A DNA stretch of 64,000 nt from positions 192,001-256,000 of IMG/VR virus record IMGVR_UViG_3300011242_000002; one strand, given 5' to 3'. Under the pieces are notes generated by a model. It was not told the DNA's origin. It made no database searches and saw nothing but the letters and a program-made list of their open reading frames with translations. Positions 3 through 22,659 of this stretch are shown in pieces (positions within the stretch are counted from its first letter, which is position 1; every line of letters starts with the position of its first letter). Source of the DNA: a virus. Taxonomy: Duplodnaviria; Caudoviricetes. The position numbers were made by a program, and so were the translations under genes.

Positions 3-1760
3 TTCAAGATCGCGACCGATGCGATGGAAGAGTTCGCCAAGGGCTACGAAGATAAAGGCTACAAGAAGACCTGGTACATCCTGCCGCTGCAGGACACCAA
101 CCTGCACTGCGGTTCCCTGATCTATGCGCTGATCATCAGCAACACCACGGTAGCCACCTACACCTACCTGCTGGAAAACACCGGTTCTCAGCTGAAACCA
201 ATGACCGGCAACGATCCGCAGACCAACGAACGTTACGAGCTGCCGCGCATGACCGGTTCTCAGTACGATGACATCTACTGGGCCGCTGTACAGTCCACCG
301 TGCGTCGTGCGCTGCGTCTTAGCGACAGCGTGAACATCCTGGAAGCCGGTGCGGGTGTTATCCATTCCGAAATGGATTGGAAAGACACTACTGCTATTGG
401 CCGCCACCTCAACAACGCCGAAAACGCCGCGATGGCGTATGCTAACCGCCTGTCTGGCTACCAGATTGAACCACCACTGAACCTGGTGACTGAAATCAAC
501 CCGCTGGTCGACCGTCTGTCCGCCGGCTTCAACTTCAACCCACTGCCGCTGTACACCGCGGATGGTCAGCCACAGCGTAACGACGTAGAAATCAAACTCA
601 CCGTAAGCTCTGACGGCGACGTGCAGGTTCAGAACTCCGAACCTTTCACCACCGTTAACGCCTACGTGGAACTGGTTTCTGCCGGTAACCAACCGCAGTA
701 CATCCCAGGTCCGTACGGCCAGATGGTGCAGGCGACCCAGCGCTACTACCCGCAGCTGGCAATCACCAACATCAGCCAGGGGATCTTCGATGCCGAAGGC
801 GCTGAGTTCCAGCTCCTGGGTCTCTACACTGCTACCCTGCTGATGGAGAACAACAACTGGCAGAACGCCTTTGCTCCGCGCATGGTTAACGGTGTCGACA
901 TCAACGACATCGGTGCCCTGAACTACGAGCTGGGCCTGGGTCGTGATCCAGCTGACCCGAACGCACGTCCGAAGAAGATCGACACCAAGTCCCATGACTT
1001 CAACATGCATGCCCTGTCGCAGCTGCTGAACACCGCCTGCTTCCCAAGCATGTCGATGGTACTTGACATCGAAGAAACCGGACACCGTAACTGGGTGAAC
1101 TCGATGTTCCTGCAAGCCGGTGGCCTGCCGAACACCAACTACACCCTGCTGTCGGACGACGGTAAGCTGGCGCACGATGCCATCATCGCCGCCGCCAACA
1201 ACCTGACCAACGGGAACTTCTCCAAGTTCTTCACGGATCCTACGCAGCTGATCACGATCCGTGACGGTTCGCGTATTCAGGGTGGCTACTACGTGAGCGA
1301 AGACGGTAAACGTCTGGATATTCGTAACGTCGATCTGCTGGCGGTACTGAACTTCCTCGGCGAATCCGATCCACGTCGCGTAGACGAGTGGAAGATGATC
1401 TGTTCTTCTACTTCCGGCCTGTCCGGTCCAAAACGCATTGCGCTGCGTCAGCAGTTCCTGCAGACCATCCTGGGTGCCTCTTACCAGCAGAAGTGCTACT
1501 TCGAGCGAGTAATGGTCAACCACGTGTTCCTGGAAGCACTGCGTCAGGCCCTGGCCGCCGGTGGCGTGCAGGTTCGTCCGGAAAACATGTCCAGCCAGTA
1601 CAACTCCATGTCCTACGGCACGCCGCTGGCACAGATGTACGGCTTCAACACCAACGTCGGTTCTTCCCTGGTTCAGGGTGGTTTCACGCAGGTGGACAAC
1701 ATGGGCCGTGCGATCAACTTTGGTAACTACCGTACCCCGTTCGGTCACTACCATAACTAA
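3..1760 (+). CDS. chmA: Chimallin (phage nuclear shell protein, ChmA/PhuN), 5'-truncated
   Basis: The frame is open from the window start, with >578 aa and strongly biased codons. It lies immediately upstream of the nvRNAP beta' N-part, as phiKZ gp54 does to gp55, and has a G/N/F-rich C-terminal tail and a strong downstream terminator. Based on synteny plus recalled similarity. Confidence 0.8.
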   Translation, partial: FKIATDAMEEFAKGYEDKGYKKTWYILPLQDTNLHCGSLIYALIISNTTVATYTYLLENTGSQLKPMTGNDPQTNERYELPRMTGSQYDDIYWAAVQSTVRRALRLSDSVNILEAGAGVIHSEMDWKDTTAIGRHLNNAENAAMAYANRLSGYQIEPPLNLVTEINPLVDRLSAGFNFNPLPLYTADGQPQRNDVEIKLTVSSDGDVQVQNSEPFTTVNAYVELVSAGNQPQYIPGPYGQMVQATQRYYPQLAITNISQGIFDAEGAEFQLLGLYTATLLMENNNWQNAFAPRMVNGVDINDIGALNYELGLGRDPADPNARPKKIDTKSHDFNMHALSQLLNTACFPSMSMVLDIEETGHRNWVNSMFLQAGGLPNTNYTLLSDDGKLAHDAIIAAANNLTNGNFSKFFTDPTQLITIRDGSRIQGGYYVSEDGKRLDIRNVDLLAVLNFLGESDPRRVDEWKMICSSTSGLSGPKRIALRQQFLQTILGASYQQKCYFERVMVNHVFLEALRQALAAGGVQVRPENMSSQYNSMSYGTPLAQMYGFNTNVGSSLVQGGFTQVDNMGRAINFGNYRTPFGHYHN

Positions 1761-1770
1761 GATGATGGTT

Positions 1771-1816
1771 GCATAAGTAACGGAAGAGGAGGGTTCACGC
1801 CCTCCTCTTTTTATGC
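1771..1816 (+). terminator. Intrinsic terminator with GCATAA...TTATGC outer clamp
   Basis: AAGAGGAGGG-TTCACG-CCCTCCTCTT followed by TTTATGC. Confidence 0.85.
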
Positions 1817-1859
1817 CCTACCATTATTTTTTTAACCCGTCGGAAAAAAGGAAAAGGTC

Positions 1860-3332
1860 ATGCAACCCATTGCCAATGGCGGCGTCTGCGCCACCGTCGC
1901 TGACCACGACAAAGCGTTCCTCCAGCTCGAATACTCGCCGGTCATGATCAACGATTTTGACCTCAGTATTGAAGCCGAGCGTGCCAAGCTGAATGCGCAA
2001 ATGCGCGTTAGCTACGACACCGACATGTTCAGCGTCAAGCCGCGCTGCTTCTGTGGGAAACTGGAGGGCGGTGAAAAGGTTGGTCGCGTCTGCGGCGTCT
2101 GTAACCATCCGGTCACGGTGGTCACCGAAGAGGCGATCGAATCTCAGCTGTGGTTCCAAACCCCCTTAGGGGTAGCCGGCTACATCAACCCGCAGATGTG
2201 GACGCTGTTGTTTGAACCCTTCGTGGTCAAGGGCTTCAATCCCCTCGAGTATTTTGCTGACCGTCAGTATACTCCCGCCAAAGCCAGCGGGGATTACAAG
2301 AACAAAGAGATCTACCTGCTCTGTAAGTCGCTCAATATCCCGCGCGGTTTAAACAGCCTGGTGGAAAACTTTGATAAGATCATGGACACGCTGCTCAATT
2401 CCCCGGTGGTGCGCAGCAGTAACATCTCAGCCGAAGCTCTGCGTAACTACAGTGCGCTGTATCAACGTTACCGCTCGGTGATGTTTTGCACCTACCTGCA
2501 GCTACCCTCAAAGTTAGTATTCATCGTGGAATCTAATGCGACGGGGCGTTATGCAGAACCCGGTATGAAACTGGCTCAGGATGCTGCGTTGACCGTCTGC
2601 GATGCCCGCAAGGAGATCCTCGACAACCACGACCTGAAGTTCAACGAGAACATCGCCATCAAGGTGGTGCGTCAGCTGGCGGACTTCTACAAGTCGCACG
2701 ACAAGGATATCTTTGCCGGCAAACCCGGGCTGTTGCGTAAGAACATCGGTGGTTCCCGCATGCCGTTTACCGCCCGTTGTGTAATCACTTCAAAGACCGG
2801 CCATCACGACATGGACGAGGTGGACATCCCGCGCTGTATTGCGATTCCGCTGCTGCGTTTTCACATTGCCAACAAGCTTAAGCGTCGCGGCTTTCGCCCG
2901 GTAGAGATCCTCTCGCGCATCAACGCCTCGATCAAACGCCCGGACCCGGTGATTGAATCGGTGCTGGACGAGCTGGAGCTGGATCAAAAGATCAAAGGCT
3001 CAGTGGTGCGTTTGCTGAAGATCTTCCTGCTGCGTAACCCAACCTTACGCTGGTTGTCCAACCGTCGTTTTTATGCCCGCATCAACCGTAACCCGGAAGA
3101 GATCACCATCAAGATCTCCACGCTCTCCATTATCTCGTCGAACGCCGACTTTGATGGTGATGAGCTGAACCTGCTGATGGTCACCGATCAGATCATGTCA
3201 ACGTATGCCGAAGCCTTTGGTTCGCATAACTGCGTGCTGGACATGAACAACCCGTTGACCGTATCGGGTGACATTGCGCTGCCGGCTACGCTGATCTCCA
3301 CGATCAACCGTTGGGCCTATAGCCACGACTAA
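1860..3332 (+). CDS. Non-virion RNA polymerase beta' subunit, N-terminal part (phiKZ gp55/56.1-like)
   Basis: Zn finger CFCG...CGVC; GKPGLLRKNIGGSR..ARCVIT; LLRNPTL; catalytic NADFDGDE. Confidence 0.93.
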   Translation: MQPIANGGVCATVADHDKAFLQLEYSPVMINDFDLSIEAERAKLNAQMRVSYDTDMFSVKPRCFCGKLEGGEKVGRVCGVCNHPVTVVTEEAIESQLWFQTPLGVAGYINPQMWTLLFEPFVVKGFNPLEYFADRQYTPAKASGDYKNKEIYLLCKSLNIPRGLNSLVENFDKIMDTLLNSPVVRSSNISAEALRNYSALYQRYRSVMFCTYLQLPSKLVFIVESNATGRYAEPGMKLAQDAALTVCDARKEILDNHDLKFNENIAIKVVRQLADFYKSHDKDIFAGKPGLLRKNIGGSRMPFTARCVITSKTGHHDMDEVDIPRCIAIPLLRFHIANKLKRRGFRPVEILSRINASIKRPDPVIESVLDELELDQKIKGSVVRLLKIFLLRNPTLRWLSNRRFYARINRNPEEITIKISTLSIISSNADFDGDELNLLMVTDQIMSTYAEAFGSHNCVLDMNNPLTVSGDIALPATLISTINRWAYSHD

Positions 3333-6156: not shown

Positions 6157-6163
6157 CAAACCG

Positions 6164-6187
6164 GTCTGGGGGCAACCCCAGACTTTT
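6164..6187 (+). terminator. Intrinsic terminator
   Basis: GTCTGGGG-GCAA-CCCCAGAC-TTTT. Confidence 0.85.
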
Positions 6188-6415: not shown

Positions 6416-6949
6416 ATGACCTCTAAAAAGCGTAGTGAATTAATTGCTGATGTTGACCTCAGTCCCGTTCCTGTCACCGGCCACCCACGTTTAGCAATGA
6501 TGCCCGGTAAGGACTTTGTGAGTGAATCATTCCATCCGGCTCCTGGCAATCAACCCAAAGTCTTTGAAGAGAGCGAAGCACCTGAAATAAAGGGTGTCGT
6601 GCTTAAAGGTGCGAAGGGCGTGGTAAATGAAATCATCCCTAGTAAACATATCCCAATTGACGCAGAAGGTAACAAGGCTGAACTGTTAATGCATGCTGAA
6701 GAAGCTGATGATGAAACTTACGCACTACCGTATTTGGGTGCTGATTATGAAGGCAACGTGGCCTTTACGCGCCCGCGTCAGCTGAAGCGCAGCAAGAACC
6801 ATCAGCGTCACGGTTACAGCAAGCGTAAAGCCAAACGTCACGCCAGCTGGAACTGCGTGTACAAAGCCAGATTCAAAGAACGAGCTACCCGTCTTATGGG
6901 TTGGATGGAATCCTGCAGCGAGCTTAAGTTTGATAAAAAGGGTGCGTAA
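6416..6949 (+). CDS. Accessory protein with RNAP beta/beta' active-site-like fragments and a basic tail
   Basis: AAGGA RBS; GAKGVV..IIP....PIDAEGNKAELLM and GADYEGN; K/R-rich C-terminal third. Confidence 0.7.
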   Translation: MTSKKRSELIADVDLSPVPVTGHPRLAMMPGKDFVSESFHPAPGNQPKVFEESEAPEIKGVVLKGAKGVVNEIIPSKHIPIDAEGNKAELLMHAEEADDETYALPYLGADYEGNVAFTRPRQLKRSKNHQRHGYSKRKAKRHASWNCVYKARFKERATRLMGWMESCSELKFDKKGA

Positions 6950-7431
6950 TGGGGCTTAACAAGAAAGCACTGAAACACGCGGCGTATAAACGTTGTGGTC
7001 TTGGCGTAAAGCATTTGTTTAAATCAATTACTTCTTTGACCCGCACACCGCAACGTACTACCGAAGACGCCTTTCTGTACGTTAAGGCCGACCTGATCCC
7101 CTTGGTCAAAACCCAGTGGAAATACGGTAAGTTTCCGCAGAGACCTTCTGTGTATCGCTACGAGGTTAGTGAGGCGAGTCTACTCACTAACATGATGCCG
7201 GTGTCTGTCAATCCCGATGTCAAGGAAGTGGATGCAAACACCAACGAGCTGACCATTGAGTTCACTGCTATCAAGTCTGGTTATGACCCAATTAATCAAG
7301 CGCTTGTGGGTGGATTACACCCGGGTAGTTTCACCACTGTTTCACCACAGCGTTCTGCGCTGCACGAAACTCACCTGAGACTCATAGCGGCTCAGATGGA
7401 AAAGGCAGCCCAGAAAGACAATAATAATTAA
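6949..7431 (+). CDS. Accessory protein with basic N-terminus and a DnaB/RecA-fold pre-Walker A-like fragment
   Basis: Coupled to the previous ORF; IKSGYDPINQALVGGLHPGSFTTVS with no following GKT. Confidence 0.65.
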   Translation: MGLNKKALKHAAYKRCGLGVKHLFKSITSLTRTPQRTTEDAFLYVKADLIPLVKTQWKYGKFPQRPSVYRYEVSEASLLTNMMPVSVNPDVKEVDANTNELTIEFTAIKSGYDPINQALVGGLHPGSFTTVSPQRSALHETHLRLIAAQMEKAAQKDNNN

Positions 7432-7771: not shown

Positions 7772-7804
7772 AACAGGTAGGGGGAAACCCCTACCTTTTA
7801 TGCC
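7765..7804 (+). terminator. Intrinsic terminator with CATAAAA...TTTTATG clamp
   Basis: AGGTAGGGG-GAAA-CCCCTACCT-TTTATGCC. Confidence 0.85.
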
Positions 7805-18570: not shown

Positions 18571-20682
18571 ATGACAACCCCAGTAATAGAAGCCAGTGAG
18601 CTGTCGGCAGATATTCTCTCGTCAGTTCTCTCGCTTAACCCGACGGTCCACGGTGACTCCTCACCGCGTTCTGCGATGTTCGGTGGCCACGCCGGACAGG
18701 CGGTGACCATTGAGGGTTCCACCCCGCGTATGCTGAAAACCGGTCAAGAATACGAATACGCAAAAGGCACGTTTAAGATCGAAGCACCCTGTGACATGTT
18801 GATCATTGACGTGATCCAGCGCTTTTCGAAAACCTGGGGTGCGGGCGGTATTCGCTCTAACCCCGAAACCTTTGTCCTGTACGAACGCCTCACCGGTAAA
18901 ACCACCAAGCTGCAGCAGGAGTCGCACGTCTTTGACATCATGCGTATTCCGGCCTACCACACCCGTAACCATGCGCTCGGCTTTAAGTACGTGCAGCATA
19001 CGGTTAACCAGGACCGCCTGCGTCCGGGTGAGCTGGTAGAGAAAGGCACGGTGTTTGCCTATTCCCCTAACCTGACCTCCGGTGGTGATTATAAGTACGG
19101 CCGGGAAACCAACGTGGCGTTTTTATCGATCCCTGAGGTCGAGCAGGACGGCATGGTGGTCACCGAGTCCTTCGCCAACGCCATGGCCTGTACCAAGATC
19201 GAAAGCCGCATTGCCCAGTGGGGGGAAAACAAGATCCTGCTGAACCTGTACGGGGATGCAGAAAACTACCGTCCGTTCCCGGAGATCGGTGATAAGATCC
19301 GTGATGACGGGTTATTGTTCGCCGTGCGTACCATTGAGCCTGGCGTGGGTATCGTCAACCTGACACCGAAAGCGCTGATGGAGTTTGACGACACCTTCGA
19401 TCAGGGCAAGTACGGGGAAGCCGGTGCCACCATCATCAACATTGCGGTGAAGTCGGATCGCATGCGCACCGGTCGCTCAGAAGTCCAGTTCTATGACCGT
19501 CAGGCTGACCGCTATGAGCGTGCCGCCCGTTCCTTCTCTACCCGCCTGCGGGATAATTACGAGAAGCTGGCCCGTGCCCATCCTAACACGCTGCTGCTCG
19601 GTGATGAGCTGAACCGCATGGTAACCGATGCCATTTCGGATACCGGTGGTCTGGATCGTCGCATGAACAGCCAGGGTGAAGTGATCAGCATGGACAAAGG
19701 TGCCCAGATCTACAACAAGGTGCCGATCGGCGACTGGCGTGCCGAGATCACCTTCGTGAAGCGACTGGAAGCCGGGGTGCGCTTTAAGATTACTGACACT
19801 CACGGTGGTAAAGGTGTTATTGTCAAGGTGATCAAGGATGAAGATGCACCGATCGATGAACACGGTAACCGCGCTGACGTGATCATGGACAACTGCTCCA
19901 TCACCAAGCGTATGAACCTGGGCAAGCCGGCTGAGCAGTATATCAACGGGGCGTCGGTACACGCCACCAAGATTGCGCGTCAACTGAAAGCGGCCAACGA
20001 CATGGACGGCGCGTGGCAGCACCTGATGTCGTATTACGAGGCAGCGGCCTACGAACAGTGGGAGCTGATGCAAAACCAGCTGTACGCCGTCAAGGCCAAC
20101 CGTGACCACCACGTCAACTGGGTTTGTGATCACGGTATTGAGCTGTACTGCCCAACCGATCGTAAGTACTACGGGGCCGAACAGATTCGTCGCATCATGC
20201 GGGGTCATGACTTCCCCACCACCCGCGTGCGCTACCGTGCACCTAACGGGGAACTGGTGTGGACCAAGGACCCGGTGGTGATTGCGCCGATCTACATTAT
20301 CCTGCTGGAGAAGATGGGGGAATACTGGGCGTCCTGTGCCATTCCGAAACTGACCCACTTTGGTACGCTGTCAACGCTTACCCAGGTGGACAAGTACTCA
20401 CTGCCGTGGCGTAATACCCCGACCCGCTTTACCGGGGAGTCGGAGATTCGCCTGTTCTTGGCTGCCTGCGGTGGCTGGTTCACCAACCGCCTGCTGTCCT
20501 TTGCGAATACACCAACCATGCAGAAAGCTGCCGTGACCAAGATCCTGCAGGCTAAGGATCCGATGCGCTTGCAAAGCATGATTGATGAGAAGGCCAACCC
20601 ATTAGGTCGGGGTCGTCCGCTGCAGATGTACAAGCATATTCAGGCATGTCGTGGTATTCATTTGGAACGCCGTGCAGCGTAA
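18571..20682 (+). CDS. Non-virion RNA polymerase beta subunit, C-terminal part (phiKZ gp71/73-like), uninterrupted
   Basis: DSSPRSAMF, EQDGMVV, KITDTHGGKGVI...ADVIMD...KRMN, YIILLEK, RFTGESE. Confidence 0.93.
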   Translation: MTTPVIEASELSADILSSVLSLNPTVHGDSSPRSAMFGGHAGQAVTIEGSTPRMLKTGQEYEYAKGTFKIEAPCDMLIIDVIQRFSKTWGAGGIRSNPETFVLYERLTGKTTKLQQESHVFDIMRIPAYHTRNHALGFKYVQHTVNQDRLRPGELVEKGTVFAYSPNLTSGGDYKYGRETNVAFLSIPEVEQDGMVVTESFANAMACTKIESRIAQWGENKILLNLYGDAENYRPFPEIGDKIRDDGLLFAVRTIEPGVGIVNLTPKALMEFDDTFDQGKYGEAGATIINIAVKSDRMRTGRSEVQFYDRQADRYERAARSFSTRLRDNYEKLARAHPNTLLLGDELNRMVTDAISDTGGLDRRMNSQGEVISMDKGAQIYNKVPIGDWRAEITFVKRLEAGVRFKITDTHGGKGVIVKVIKDEDAPIDEHGNRADVIMDNCSITKRMNLGKPAEQYINGASVHATKIARQLKAANDMDGAWQHLMSYYEAAAYEQWELMQNQLYAVKANRDHHVNWVCDHGIELYCPTDRKYYGAEQIRRIMRGHDFPTTRVRYRAPNGELVWTKDPVVIAPIYIILLEKMGEYWASCAIPKLTHFGTLSTLTQVDKYSLPWRNTPTRFTGESEIRLFLAACGGWFTNRLLSFANTPTMQKAAVTKILQAKDPMRLQSMIDEKANPLGRGRPLQMYKHIQACRGIHLERRAA

Positions 20683-20685
20683 GGA

Positions 20686-22659
20686 GTGATGATGCAAACC
20701 TATAACTGGCAAGACCTGCTGGCAATGGACGAAACCCAGCTGTGGCAGCTGGATACCGGCAACAACCCGCTGATTAAAGTCAAGGCGCGGGACAAGGAGT
20801 TCGAGATCCTTGCCCGCCTGGCGATCGTCAGCTGGTACTGCTGGCCGCTGCAGCGGCAGTTCCCGGGGATGGCGCTGGACAAGCGCCACTTCGCCACCTC
20901 TATTCGTCTGTCCAACAAAACCCTGCTCGGGATTCTGACCCAGGGGCTGCGTGATTACGTGGACCTGCATCCGGGGGTGATTGATGTGGTCGATATCAAC
21001 AGCCGCATTGCGCGTGCGGTGAACGACCTTAACAACACCTTCGTGATGAAGATCCCGGAGTACGTGACCACCGCCTCGATGCGTCAGTACATTGAGGTGC
21101 TGGATGACCCGGAGATGGTGGCGGTGCGTCAAGCGATGGAGCCGAACCAGAACTCCATTCGCGAATCGTACAAGAACGGCCTGGGGATCATCAAACGCAT
21201 GGACAAGTTCATCGGTAACCAGATTGCCGAGGACATCAAGCAGGGATCGGTGTCGGACGGTCAGACGTCACAGGTGTTTATTGCGCGTGGTTATCTGACC
21301 GACCACAACTCCCGTATCTTCGTGAAACCGGTGATGGCCTGCTACGCCGAAGGGTTGGGGTCGTTCTACGATGCCTTCGTGGAATCCCGCTCGGCCACCA
21401 AAGCGATGCTGTTCCAGAAGAAGCCGCTGGAAGACTCCGAATGGTTTAACCGTAAAATGCAGCTGGTAGCCCAGGCAGTTCAGCGCATCCACATGAACGA
21501 GGACTGTGGTTCTACCGTCACGGTACCGGTGTTGGTTAAAGAGGGTTGGCTCAGTCGTCTGGCCGGTAAGTACTACTACGCCGACGACAACAAGACCCTG
21601 AAGTGCGTGTCGGATAAGGACGATCACCTGATTGGTCGCATTATTCATATGCGATCGCCAATGTACTGTAACCACGTAGACCGCTCCGGCATTTGCGAAG
21701 CCTGTTACGGGAAGTTGGCCATTAGTCTGCCGTACTTTAACGCCCTGGGTGAGATCGGGAAGAACGAAATCATCATCGGGCATATCAGTGCGACAGAGAT
21801 CGGTCAGGATCTGTCACAGAAGATGTTGTCCACCAAACACCTGGATACCTCTTCGACCACAGAACCGTTCGTGCCACGTCGTCAGGATGCGATGTACATC
21901 ATTGAGGGGATGCGGGATAATGCTGTGCGGTTACACCCCCGCCTCAAGAAAGACAAGGTGAAGTTAAAAGTAAACTTTAACAAAACCACCGCATTATCTG
22001 ATATCTACGTGGCTGAAAATCTGGATGAGGTGGCGACCCGTGCGGGTGGCTTTAATGAAATCGTGCTGGAGTTCGAACGCGAAGAAGGCTATAGCGAAGC
22101 AATTCCTATCCCGACGGTGCAAGGTTCACGTCAGGGGCAGTTTACGGTCGACTTCCTGCGCTTCCTGCAAAAGGCCAACTGGACGAATGCCGAGAAAGGC
22201 TTCATCGTAATTGATCTGTCGACCTTTGACTTCGATTGCGACGTGGTTGAGCTGCCGCTGGTACACCAAGACATGACGGTGTACCAAAAGCAGATCGAGG
22301 CGTTTATTCGTTTCAGCAAGGAATCGGCCAAATGGAAGGGCAAGTTCATTACGCCTGAGGATGCGGGATTAGCGCTGAGTGAATTCTACTCGCTGCTGTC
22401 CGAACGCCTGAAGGTTAACATCGTCCATGCCGAGATGATGCTGTATTCGGTCATGACCCTCAATCCGAGCGGTTATGACTATCGTCTCCCACGGGCGTAT
22501 GAAGATCGTCAGTTCTCCTCCTACCACGAATGTATCGAGTTTCGTTCGTTGTCGGTGCAGCTTCTGTATCAGGAGCAGGCTACCGTAATGATGAAACCGA
22601 CTACCTTCCTGGTAGAGCACCGCCAGTCTCATCCAGCCGACAGCATCTTTGTTGACTGA
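20686..22659 (+). CDS. Non-virion RNA polymerase beta' subunit, C-terminal part (phiKZ gp74-like)
   Basis: ESRSATKA, EDCGS, RSPMYC...ICEACYG, SQKMLSTKH. Confidence 0.9.
   Translation: MMMQTYNWQDLLAMDETQLWQLDTGNNPLIKVKARDKEFEILARLAIVSWYCWPLQRQFPGMALDKRHFATSIRLSNKTLLGILTQGLRDYVDLHPGVIDVVDINSRIARAVNDLNNTFVMKIPEYVTTASMRQYIEVLDDPEMVAVRQAMEPNQNSIRESYKNGLGIIKRMDKFIGNQIAEDIKQGSVSDGQTSQVFIARGYLTDHNSRIFVKPVMACYAEGLGSFYDAFVESRSATKAMLFQKKPLEDSEWFNRKMQLVAQAVQRIHMNEDCGSTVTVPVLVKEGWLSRLAGKYYYADDNKTLKCVSDKDDHLIGRIIHMRSPMYCNHVDRSGICEACYGKLAISLPYFNALGEIGKNEIIIGHISATEIGQDLSQKMLSTKHLDTSSTTEPFVPRRQDAMYIIEGMRDNAVRLHPRLKKDKVKLKVNFNKTTALSDIYVAENLDEVATRAGGFNEIVLEFEREEGYSEAIPIPTVQGSRQGQFTVDFLRFLQKANWTNAEKGFIVIDLSTFDFDCDVVELPLVHQDMTVYQKQIEAFIRFSKESAKWKGKFITPEDAGLALSEFYSLLSERLKVNIVHAEMMLYSVMTLNPSGYDYRLPRAYEDRQFSSYHECIEFRSLSVQLLYQEQATVMMKPTTFLVEHRQSHPADSIFVD

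Follow-up and report, generated by a model that had tools for sequence, protein, structure and literature searches.

The P0002 gene and its genomic environment

The DNA analysed here is a window of 64,000 nucleotides (positions 192,001 to 256,000 of the IMG/VR record IMGVR_UViG_3300011242_000002) from the 273,301-bp genome of a jumbo phage that forms a nucleus; a scan of IMG/VR matched one near-identical contig only. The gene of interest, P0002, encodes a protein of 177 residues and is preceded by AAGGA, 8 nt upstream of its ATG; the features discussed below are collected in Table 1. Jumbo-phage RNA polymerases are split enzymes without alpha, omega and sigma subunits. The P0002 gene is within the chimallin/nvRNAP block of this phage, in a unit of ~1.6 kb located between chimallin and beta'N (24..3332) on one side and beta and beta'C (18571..22659) on the other. 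Two GC-rich hairpins with T runs bound this unit, which consists of a small ORF, the 177-aa ORF, a 160-aa gene and a 109-aa gene and comes directly after a gp59-like gene, a chimallivirus core gene. The gene order, namely the gp59-like 209-aa gene, an ORF of 62-64 aa, the family gene, the 160-aa gene and a gene of 109-111 aa, is constant across loci, and the same synteny was found in nine further ones (L001, L002, L009, L010, L013-L016 and Erwinia phage pEa_SNUABM_48).

Acidic strings occur in several polymerase subunits of this genome. The nvRNAP beta'C orthologue (window 20686..22659; genome ORF 212683-214656) contains DFDCD and the presumed vRNAP beta'N (genome 125376-127064) contains GGDFDGD; the true catalytic NADFDGD is that of nvRNAP beta'N.

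Table 1. Features of the P0002 locus and of the chimallin and nvRNAP genes in the same block (positions in the window)
Feature	Position	Strand	Remarks
Chimallin	24..1760		Same genome block as P0002
nvRNAP beta'N	1860..3332		phiKZ gp55 orthologue; catalytic motif NADFDGD at 3141..3161 (+)
Terminator-like hairpin	6163..6184	+	3' of the gp59-like gene; consensus scan only
ORF P0002	6416..6949	+	177 aa; member of a narrow chimallivirus-clade family
N-terminal block, residues 7-31	6434..6508	+	HPRLAMMPG-type motif; weak match to the beta N-terminus
Beta-derived hairpin segment, residues 57-94	6584..6697	+	Assigned as homologous to nvRNAP beta 404-441 by sequence comparison
Acidic cassette (HAEEADDETYALP)	6692..6730	+	From family alignments
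GADYEGN	6737..6757	+	Degenerate form of the motif conserved among members, [AG]-D-[FYHL]-D-x-[DN]
Basic motif (KRSKNHQRHGYSKRKAKR)	6785..6838	+	Best-conserved family element; nearly invariant columns
Stop/start overlap TAATG	6947..6951	+	P0002 with the downstream 160-aa gene (6949..7431)
Terminator-like hairpin	7775..7796		Consensus scan only
nvRNAP beta	18571..20682		703 aa; phiKZ gp71-73 orthologue (PDB 7ogp_C, E 3e-98)
Matching nvRNAP beta segment	19780..19893	+	Residues 404-441 of ORF 18571..20682

A hairpin segment resembling nvRNAP beta

An earlier note on this DNA had aligned residues 65-92 of P0002 (6608..6691) without gaps to residues 412-439 of the phage's own nvRNAP beta (19804..19887), with 12 identities over 28 residues. 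We found the coordinates and the strings of this match to be correct throughout. The same note took the likeness to be conserved at the protein level rather than to be a fresh copy of DNA, and the codons bear this out: six of the 12 identical residues use synonymous codons and six the same codon, and the DNA identity over the match is 47/84 (56%).

Several searches lead to the same segment. By BLASTP, P0002 matches nvRNAP beta with a pairwise E-value of 1e-5, and in the whole genome nvRNAP beta is the sole second match of P0002 (hmmsearch E 2e-5). The comparison with RNAP profiles that had been suggested is positive for beta: PHROG 3295 (RNAP beta) matches residues 64-94 with a library-wide E-value of 6e-4, and the profile of the P0002 family aligns with 61 nvRNAP beta sequences with an E-value of 1.2e-8 and a probability of 95.6% (hhalign). 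Against the PDB, the best match of the family profile is phiKZ beta (E 1.2e-4) and the next one AR9 nvRNAP beta. In addition, the family member P0007 matches residues 1058-1100 of E. coli RpoB (E 3e-4), including the GD..(8)..KGV spacing. Residues 404-441 of nvRNAP beta correspond to about 1063-1100 of E. coli beta, in the second half of that subunit's double-psi beta-barrel (DPBB). Based on these comparisons, we consider the hairpin to be truly homologous, at the protein level, to nvRNAP beta over ~35 residues.

The match lengthens by 7 residues upstream, giving 13 identities over 38 residues, and in this longer alignment K59 and K67 are aligned without gaps with K406 and K414. These are the two invariant lysines of nvRNAP beta and correspond to K1065 and K1073 of E. 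coli. The two invariant lysines of the beta barrel have been described as active-site lysines (PMC7824862, PMC7598289). The K67 position is invariant in a nine-sequence alignment of the family. The pairing of K59 with K406 is based on one identity in nine residues, and in several members an insertion shifts the first lysine out of place; since the EIKGVVLKG stretch from which K59 comes also resembles a stretch of DNA polymerase, the alignment of the first lysine is not secure.

A constrained family confined to one chimallivirus clade

Relatives of P0002 are few. We found 8 among 5.8 billion proteins and 11 clusters among 1.84 billion representatives, in searches where RNAP subunits stayed below significance, and the family amounts to about 17 distinct sequences of 74-281 aa. 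Only three of 50,697 phage records carry the gene, those of Salmonella phage SA002 and of Erwinia phages pEa_SNUABM_37 and pEa_SNUABM_48, and the same phages come out as nearest when nvRNAP beta is compared (89-91% identity). The family is confined to one chimallivirus clade, and its gene is absent from Agricanvirus, the next genus. At the syntenic place of one Agricanvirus, Erwinia phage Simmy50, there is a 94-aa basic protein, gp236 (L011:4111-4395), which weakly matches the basic half of the family only (hmmsearch E 0.004, with an 11-sequence set). The basic part may thus, as a hint, have existed earlier as a module of its own.

The alignment of the family begins with an N-terminal SPR(L/M).M(M/T)G motif, followed by EIKGV.LKG and by the hairpin, KGVV..VIPD..P.D.EGNKAELL. 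After the hairpin there is usually P.R..xG, then the acidic motif, often AVIPVYAKPK, and the nearly invariant basic motif. Most members end with a C-terminal block, which is absent from P0002. Members that are only 20-45% identical overall still have the K-G, the stretch P.D.EGNKAE and the Asp positions in common. The earlier note had been ready to give up its proposal should no profile match be significant and orthologues fail to preserve the two RNAP-like motifs; they keep both, KGV..(I)P..P.D.EGNKAE being retained and a full D-x-D-x-D being present in 10 of 16 relatives.

Selection was estimated from five orthologues. The dN/dS ratio of the whole gene is ~0.19; the hairpin has a ratio of 0.185, the acidic region one of 0.175, the C-terminal block one of 0.10 and the basic motif one of 0.06, all of them approximate values because dS is near saturation (about 1). 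These ratios indicate that the gene is real and that its RNAP-like part is constrained, though it is not the most constrained part; indeed, P0002 is a real gene under purifying selection. A chance resemblance in a non-functional ORF could be argued from the weakness of GADYEGN when taken alone and from the fact that Pfam finds nothing, but this idea is hardly credible and already contradicted by the significance of the hairpin, the conservation in the family, the synteny and the dN/dS ratios.

One member has a mixed composition: P0012 (L016:3001-3696) joins an N-terminal region of the P0007/P0016 subgroup to a core and C-terminus of the P0009 subgroup, which points to recombination between family variants.

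An acidic motif that may be related to beta'

GADYEGN follows the beta-like stretch by 15 residues. The earlier note had read it as a degenerate form of the beta' motif NADFDGD, with D>E and D>N replacements. The position and both replacements hold, the triad positions of P0002 being D110, E112 and N114, and the motif is conserved in the family: [AG]-D-[FYHL]-D-x-[DN], which resembles NADFDGD, is found in 16 aligned members and is followed by a hydrophobic stretch ending in P. Relatives without the full aspartate triad mostly have N at the last position, and most orthologues are more canonical than P0002 (NADFDMD, DGDFDYD, DADYDGN; GDLDGDQ in the most divergent one). By itself GADYEGN would be unconvincing; it is the conserved position in the family that lends it weight. 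The derivation from beta' is the part of the claim that is less firm, as the link spans 7-13 columns and could be convergence.

When the family profile was aligned with 16 nvRNAP beta'N sequences (hhalign), the best alignment fell exactly at the NADFDGD site. Over 13-14 columns the P-value is 5e-3 with the whole profile and 1e-4 with the block alone, with probabilities of 7-57% (57% for the block). The score of this match was reached by none of ~149 valid column shuffles, from which shuffles with scores near 135 and ~6 aligned columns had been excluded as numerical artefacts of hhalign. In Pfam there is no match to the beta' barrel around the acidic motif. The first Asp of the triad comes 10 residues after the proline that ends the strand in the family, and 9 in E. 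coli beta'. We regard homology of the acidic motif to beta' as possible; it could also have converged on a loop that binds metal, or be a linear motif of acidic and hydrophobic residues.

The earlier note had further concluded that the protein is non-catalytic. The D>E and D>N replacements fit this for P0002 itself, but the statement does not extend to the family, in which the triad is mostly intact. One could imagine a free-standing minimal active centre of the RNAP type, in which a beta lysine hairpin and a beta'-type Asp triad, possibly self-pairing, bind Mg and a nucleotide or an RNA 3' end. We hold this to be very unlikely. If it were true, the protein would be either a very small module for nucleotide binding or nucleotidyl transfer, or a decoy built specifically as an active site; it would also be nature's counterpart to the ancestor with a single barrel that has been proposed for the two-barrel polymerases. 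In its more specific form the idea is that of a small RNAP-type barrel, possibly a homodimer, which would bind Mg and nucleotide via the lysines and the Asp triad and would have nucleotide-binding or even nucleotidyl-transfer activity. It draws on the presence of a Lys hairpin and a D-x-D-x-D motif on one chain, on the spacing of 10 residues past the proline against 9 in E. coli beta', and on the triad, which is intact in most members and reads DLDGDQ in the most divergent one. The first half of the beta barrel, which carries the acidic pair, is absent, however; no fold is predicted, indels lie in the putative strands and P0002 itself has D, E and N, so that we consider this form highly improbable.

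Basic tail, acidic cassette of variable position and predicted structure

The charge of P0002 is bipolar. Residues 1-116 contain 11 K+R and 20 D+E, and residues 117-177 contain 19 K+R and 4 D+E; the basic tail described in the earlier note is thus present, and it holds the best-conserved motif of the family, N.QR.GYSRRKAKR in its general form. This motif begins a helix that AlphaFold2 predicts at low confidence for residues 135-168.

Between the hairpin and the acidic motif P0002 carries an acidic cassette of a type found in other members. It is 12-15 residues long, of the type E-E-A-D-D-E-T-Y-A-L-P, and occupies four different positions relative to the hairpin across members, being placed far upstream of it, just before it, inside it or just after it. 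We did not find it in any other ORF of the genome. The cassette looks like a movable short linear motif.

Structure prediction, which had been proposed as a check, does not help the idea of a folded active centre. AlphaFold2 gave a pLDDT of 47 for P0002 (9 sequences) and of 45 for the canonical orthologue P0008 (17 sequences), with pTM <0.2 in alignments that are shallow, and apart from the helix of the basic tail there is no fold in either model. ESM Atlas gave no usable match. Besides, in several members the presumed strands are interrupted by indels and by the shifting cassette, which argues against a rigid barrel. A flexible protein made of short motifs fits better, and to judge from these models P0002 probably has no stable fold on its own.

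Relation to known RNA polymerases and to phage regulators

With nvRNAP beta (phiKZ gp71-73, 7OGP chain C; PHROG 3295; PF00562, RNA_pol_Rpb2_6), P0002 has in common ~35-45 residues in the second half of the DPBB. The two share the lysine hairpin G-x-K-G, the strand P.D..GN.A(D/E) and the same genome block, and possibly also the N-terminal SPR..M.G motif and a C-terminal motif. P0002 is, however, 177 aa long against 703 aa for beta, without the first half of the barrel, the flap/SBHM insert and the clamp-side C-terminus, and its acidic motif of the D-x-D-x-D type and its basic tail are absent from beta. Pfam gives no match to P0002 at E<=1, and the best member, P0007, reaches 12.6 bits when the cut-off of PF00562 is 23.4; when the genome is scanned in six frames with PF00562, the true beta alone is detected. 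As a whole, P0002 stays under the family thresholds of Pfam and of PHROGs. Its match to PHROG 3295 extends over 31 of 698 positions, and 34-43 of the 733 profile columns align with confidence to beta (about 5% covered). No double-psi beta-barrel is seen in the AlphaFold2 models, and the 177-aa protein has no complete barrel with flap insert and C-terminal clamp region. P0002 does not belong to the RNAP beta family.

The same holds for the other large subunit. With beta' (NADFDGD; phiKZ gp55, PF00623) only the motif itself is alike and the rest of the beta' barrel is missing from P0002, in which D110, E112 and N114 stand in place of the D-x-D-x-D aspartate triad; P0002 is not a member of the beta' family. 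YonO, the QDE-1-type RdRPs and the RNAPs of crAss-like phages likewise carry the Lys- and the Asp-bearing elements on one polypeptide, but they have two complete barrels and hundreds of residues, whereas in P0002 there is no predicted fold and not more than part of one barrel. P0002 is no single-chain polymerase of the two-barrel kind and is too short to form an RNA polymerase. T7 Gp2 and T4 AsiA are small phage proteins that act on RNAP and are not derived from RNAP subunits. P0002 is also small and may act on transcription, but it has no sequence similarity to them.

We take P0002 to be a novel derivative of a known enzyme, limited to a small phage clade. We found no such mini-protein, combining a beta hairpin with a beta'-like Asp motif, described in the literature searched.

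Probable descent from a beta gene, and capture of a DNA polymerase fragment

Two further blocks point, more weakly, to the same ancestor. The N-terminal block gave a second BLASTP HSP with residues 9-39 of beta (SSPR.AM.GG; 13/31, E 2.3), at the start of both proteins, and hhalign P-values of 0.02-0.06 (P 0.023 and 0/118 shuffles when the target was limited to the expected part of beta, its first 70 residues). The C-terminal block of the relatives aligned with the Y.G.SG..V...V.IG region of beta with P-values of 0.004-0.04 (P 0.004 and 0/118 shuffles when the target was limited to the C-part of beta). The N-terminal block, the hairpin and the C-terminal block are in the same order in the family and in beta. 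The relation of the N-terminal block to beta is suggestive only; HMMER did not find the N- and C-terminal blocks in the genome, and among the blocks the hairpin alone is significant by standard measures. That only active-site motifs seem to survive is partly an ascertainment effect, since profile methods favour conserved active-site columns.

Based on these alignments, P0002 most likely descends from a copy of nvRNAP beta with large internal deletions. In the simplest history, a duplicated beta gene would have lost residues about 40-404 and much else. What appears to survive is the DPBB lysine hairpin, with strong evidence, and the N-terminal beta motif and, in relatives, the C-terminal beta motif, with weak evidence. 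After the hairpin come the acidic D-x-D-x-[DN], ~10 residues past the proline, and a basic tail that is probably helical. A shortened beta copy is a better description than two free-standing motifs. The family hairpin has ~45-52% identity with many nvRNAP betas, and the beta of this phage is no nearer to it than others, suggesting that the duplication is old and that there is no ongoing gene conversion.

The family took up a second polymerase fragment at least once. In P0014 (L007:390-1193), residues 211-246 form an in-frame piece of 36 aa with 75% identity to the DNA polymerase of the phage (its residues 442-477; PF20286 E 2e-10, BLASTP E 8e-15); this piece lies inside the family C-terminal region and is known from one 1.35-kb metagenomic contig only. 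At the DNA level this insert is also 75% identical to the polymerase gene, with 16 synonymous differences, and we take the capture to be more recent than that of the beta-derived piece. The donor type is a divergent family-B DNA polymerase, whose gene is found at 188221-190311 of the genome (L008:1501-3591), 8 kb upstream of the P0002 ORF. The captured stretch lies ~50 residues after the DTDS motif and contains a K-x-Y motif; from what is known of family-B polymerases, it is presumably the palm region that meets the primer. The family is a concrete example of the origin of a new phage gene, and it shows how phage genes can arise by drastic shortening of the gene of a core enzyme and by in-frame capture of a fragment, here of DNA polymerase.

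A wider scheme, in which the whole family and the downstream gene are a mosaic of many enzyme fragments, was rejected. HMMs built for five blocks (N, EIKG, YAKPK, basic and C) found nothing significant in the genome, the 5-mers in common with DNA polymerase (YAKPK, KGVHL) do not stand out from the roughly 270 matches of 5-mers that occur by chance, and the hints of tail-tube and DnaB-like proteins for the 160-aa protein have E-values of 0.01-0.04 or are absent. A by-eye match of the C-terminal block to DNA polymerase was dropped as it had no statistics behind it, and so was one to H..R..GS..T.QP..GK of beta, for which there are none beyond the weak hhalign alignment to beta.

Possible roles of P0002

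The original observation of the earlier note is confirmed and its interpretation is partly supported. The description of P0002 as a mimic of the RNAP active centre fits the sequence. Our preferred reading is that P0002 is an old shortened beta copy, is not a polymerase and acts as a modulator of transcription, to which as a whole we give a probability of about 50%. Most of this weight lies on the origin and on the statement that it is not a polymerase, and much less on the specific role. In such a role, the basic tail would hold nucleic acid, and the hairpin and the acidic motif would form a flexible, active-centre-like peptide module contacting a partner that ordinarily meets such a surface. 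Candidate partners would be a nucleotide with Mg, the 3' end of an RNA, or one of the RNAP subunits, for instance beta'N; P0002 would then modulate transcription inside the phage nucleus and would do so with no catalysis. With the degenerate acidic motif of P0002 (D, E, N), any binding of metal would probably be impaired. Should the protein act on transcription, it would represent a novel type of regulator, one derived from part of its own target enzyme; should metal and nucleotide be bound by the motifs, this would bear on the minimum size of an RNAP-type active site.

The greater constraint on the basic motif and the C-terminal block than on the RNAP-like part counts against this reading. 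It is what would be expected if the hairpin and the acidic motif were an inert relic of captured or duplicated gene pieces, now only a flexible linker in a protein whose function lies entirely in the basic motif (and in the C-terminal block of the relatives), for example a small nucleic-acid-binding protein unrelated to RNAP. The dN/dS ratios of 0.06 and 0.10 against 0.18, the foreign fragment taken up by P0014, the presence of the acidic cassette at four places, the lack of a predicted fold and the syntenic 94-aa gene of Simmy50, which weakly matches the basic half only, all agree with such a relic. A ratio of 0.18 on the hairpin and the acidic region is nevertheless clear purifying selection, and the K-G, P.D.EGNKAE and Asp positions are kept at 20-45% overall identity; we consider the inert relic as somewhat unlikely.

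A decoy or competitor is a further reading, and in our opinion an improbable one. Here the protein would display an epitope of nvRNAP beta (and, in one relative, of DNA polymerase) and soak up a factor that recognises it, such as a host defence sensor, the weapon of a competing phage, or an assembly or import factor of the phage. That two independent fragments of polymerase catalytic cores are found in one gene family would suit a decoy, as would the restriction of the family to a lineage, its fast evolution and its modular make-up, which are typical of conflict genes. The DNA polymerase piece, however, is known from just one short contig of a metagenome, and neither a domain nor a neighbour related to defence was observed, Pfam and PHROGs giving no match to a defence or counter-defence family. 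Moreover, the copied segments are buried elements of the active site and not surface patches (PMC7598289).

Coupling to the downstream 160-aa gene

Whatever the role of P0002, it is translationally coupled to the downstream 160-aa gene via the TAATG overlap. A relative of 287 kb has P0016 (L009:8001-8735), an in-frame fusion of the family gene with the end of the downstream gene (BLASTP E 1e-8; synteny); the fusion keeps the ~55 last residues of the 160-aa protein, the ~105 first ones being deleted. Given the overlap in the window and this natural fusion, P0002 and the 160-aa product probably act together.

The N-terminus of the 160-aa protein (6949..7026) is itself basic, M-G-L-N-K-K-A-L-K-.-A-A-Y-K-R, and resembles the RRKAKRAYQAR motif of the family. 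From this resemblance, the P0002 gene and the downstream gene may have a tandem relationship.
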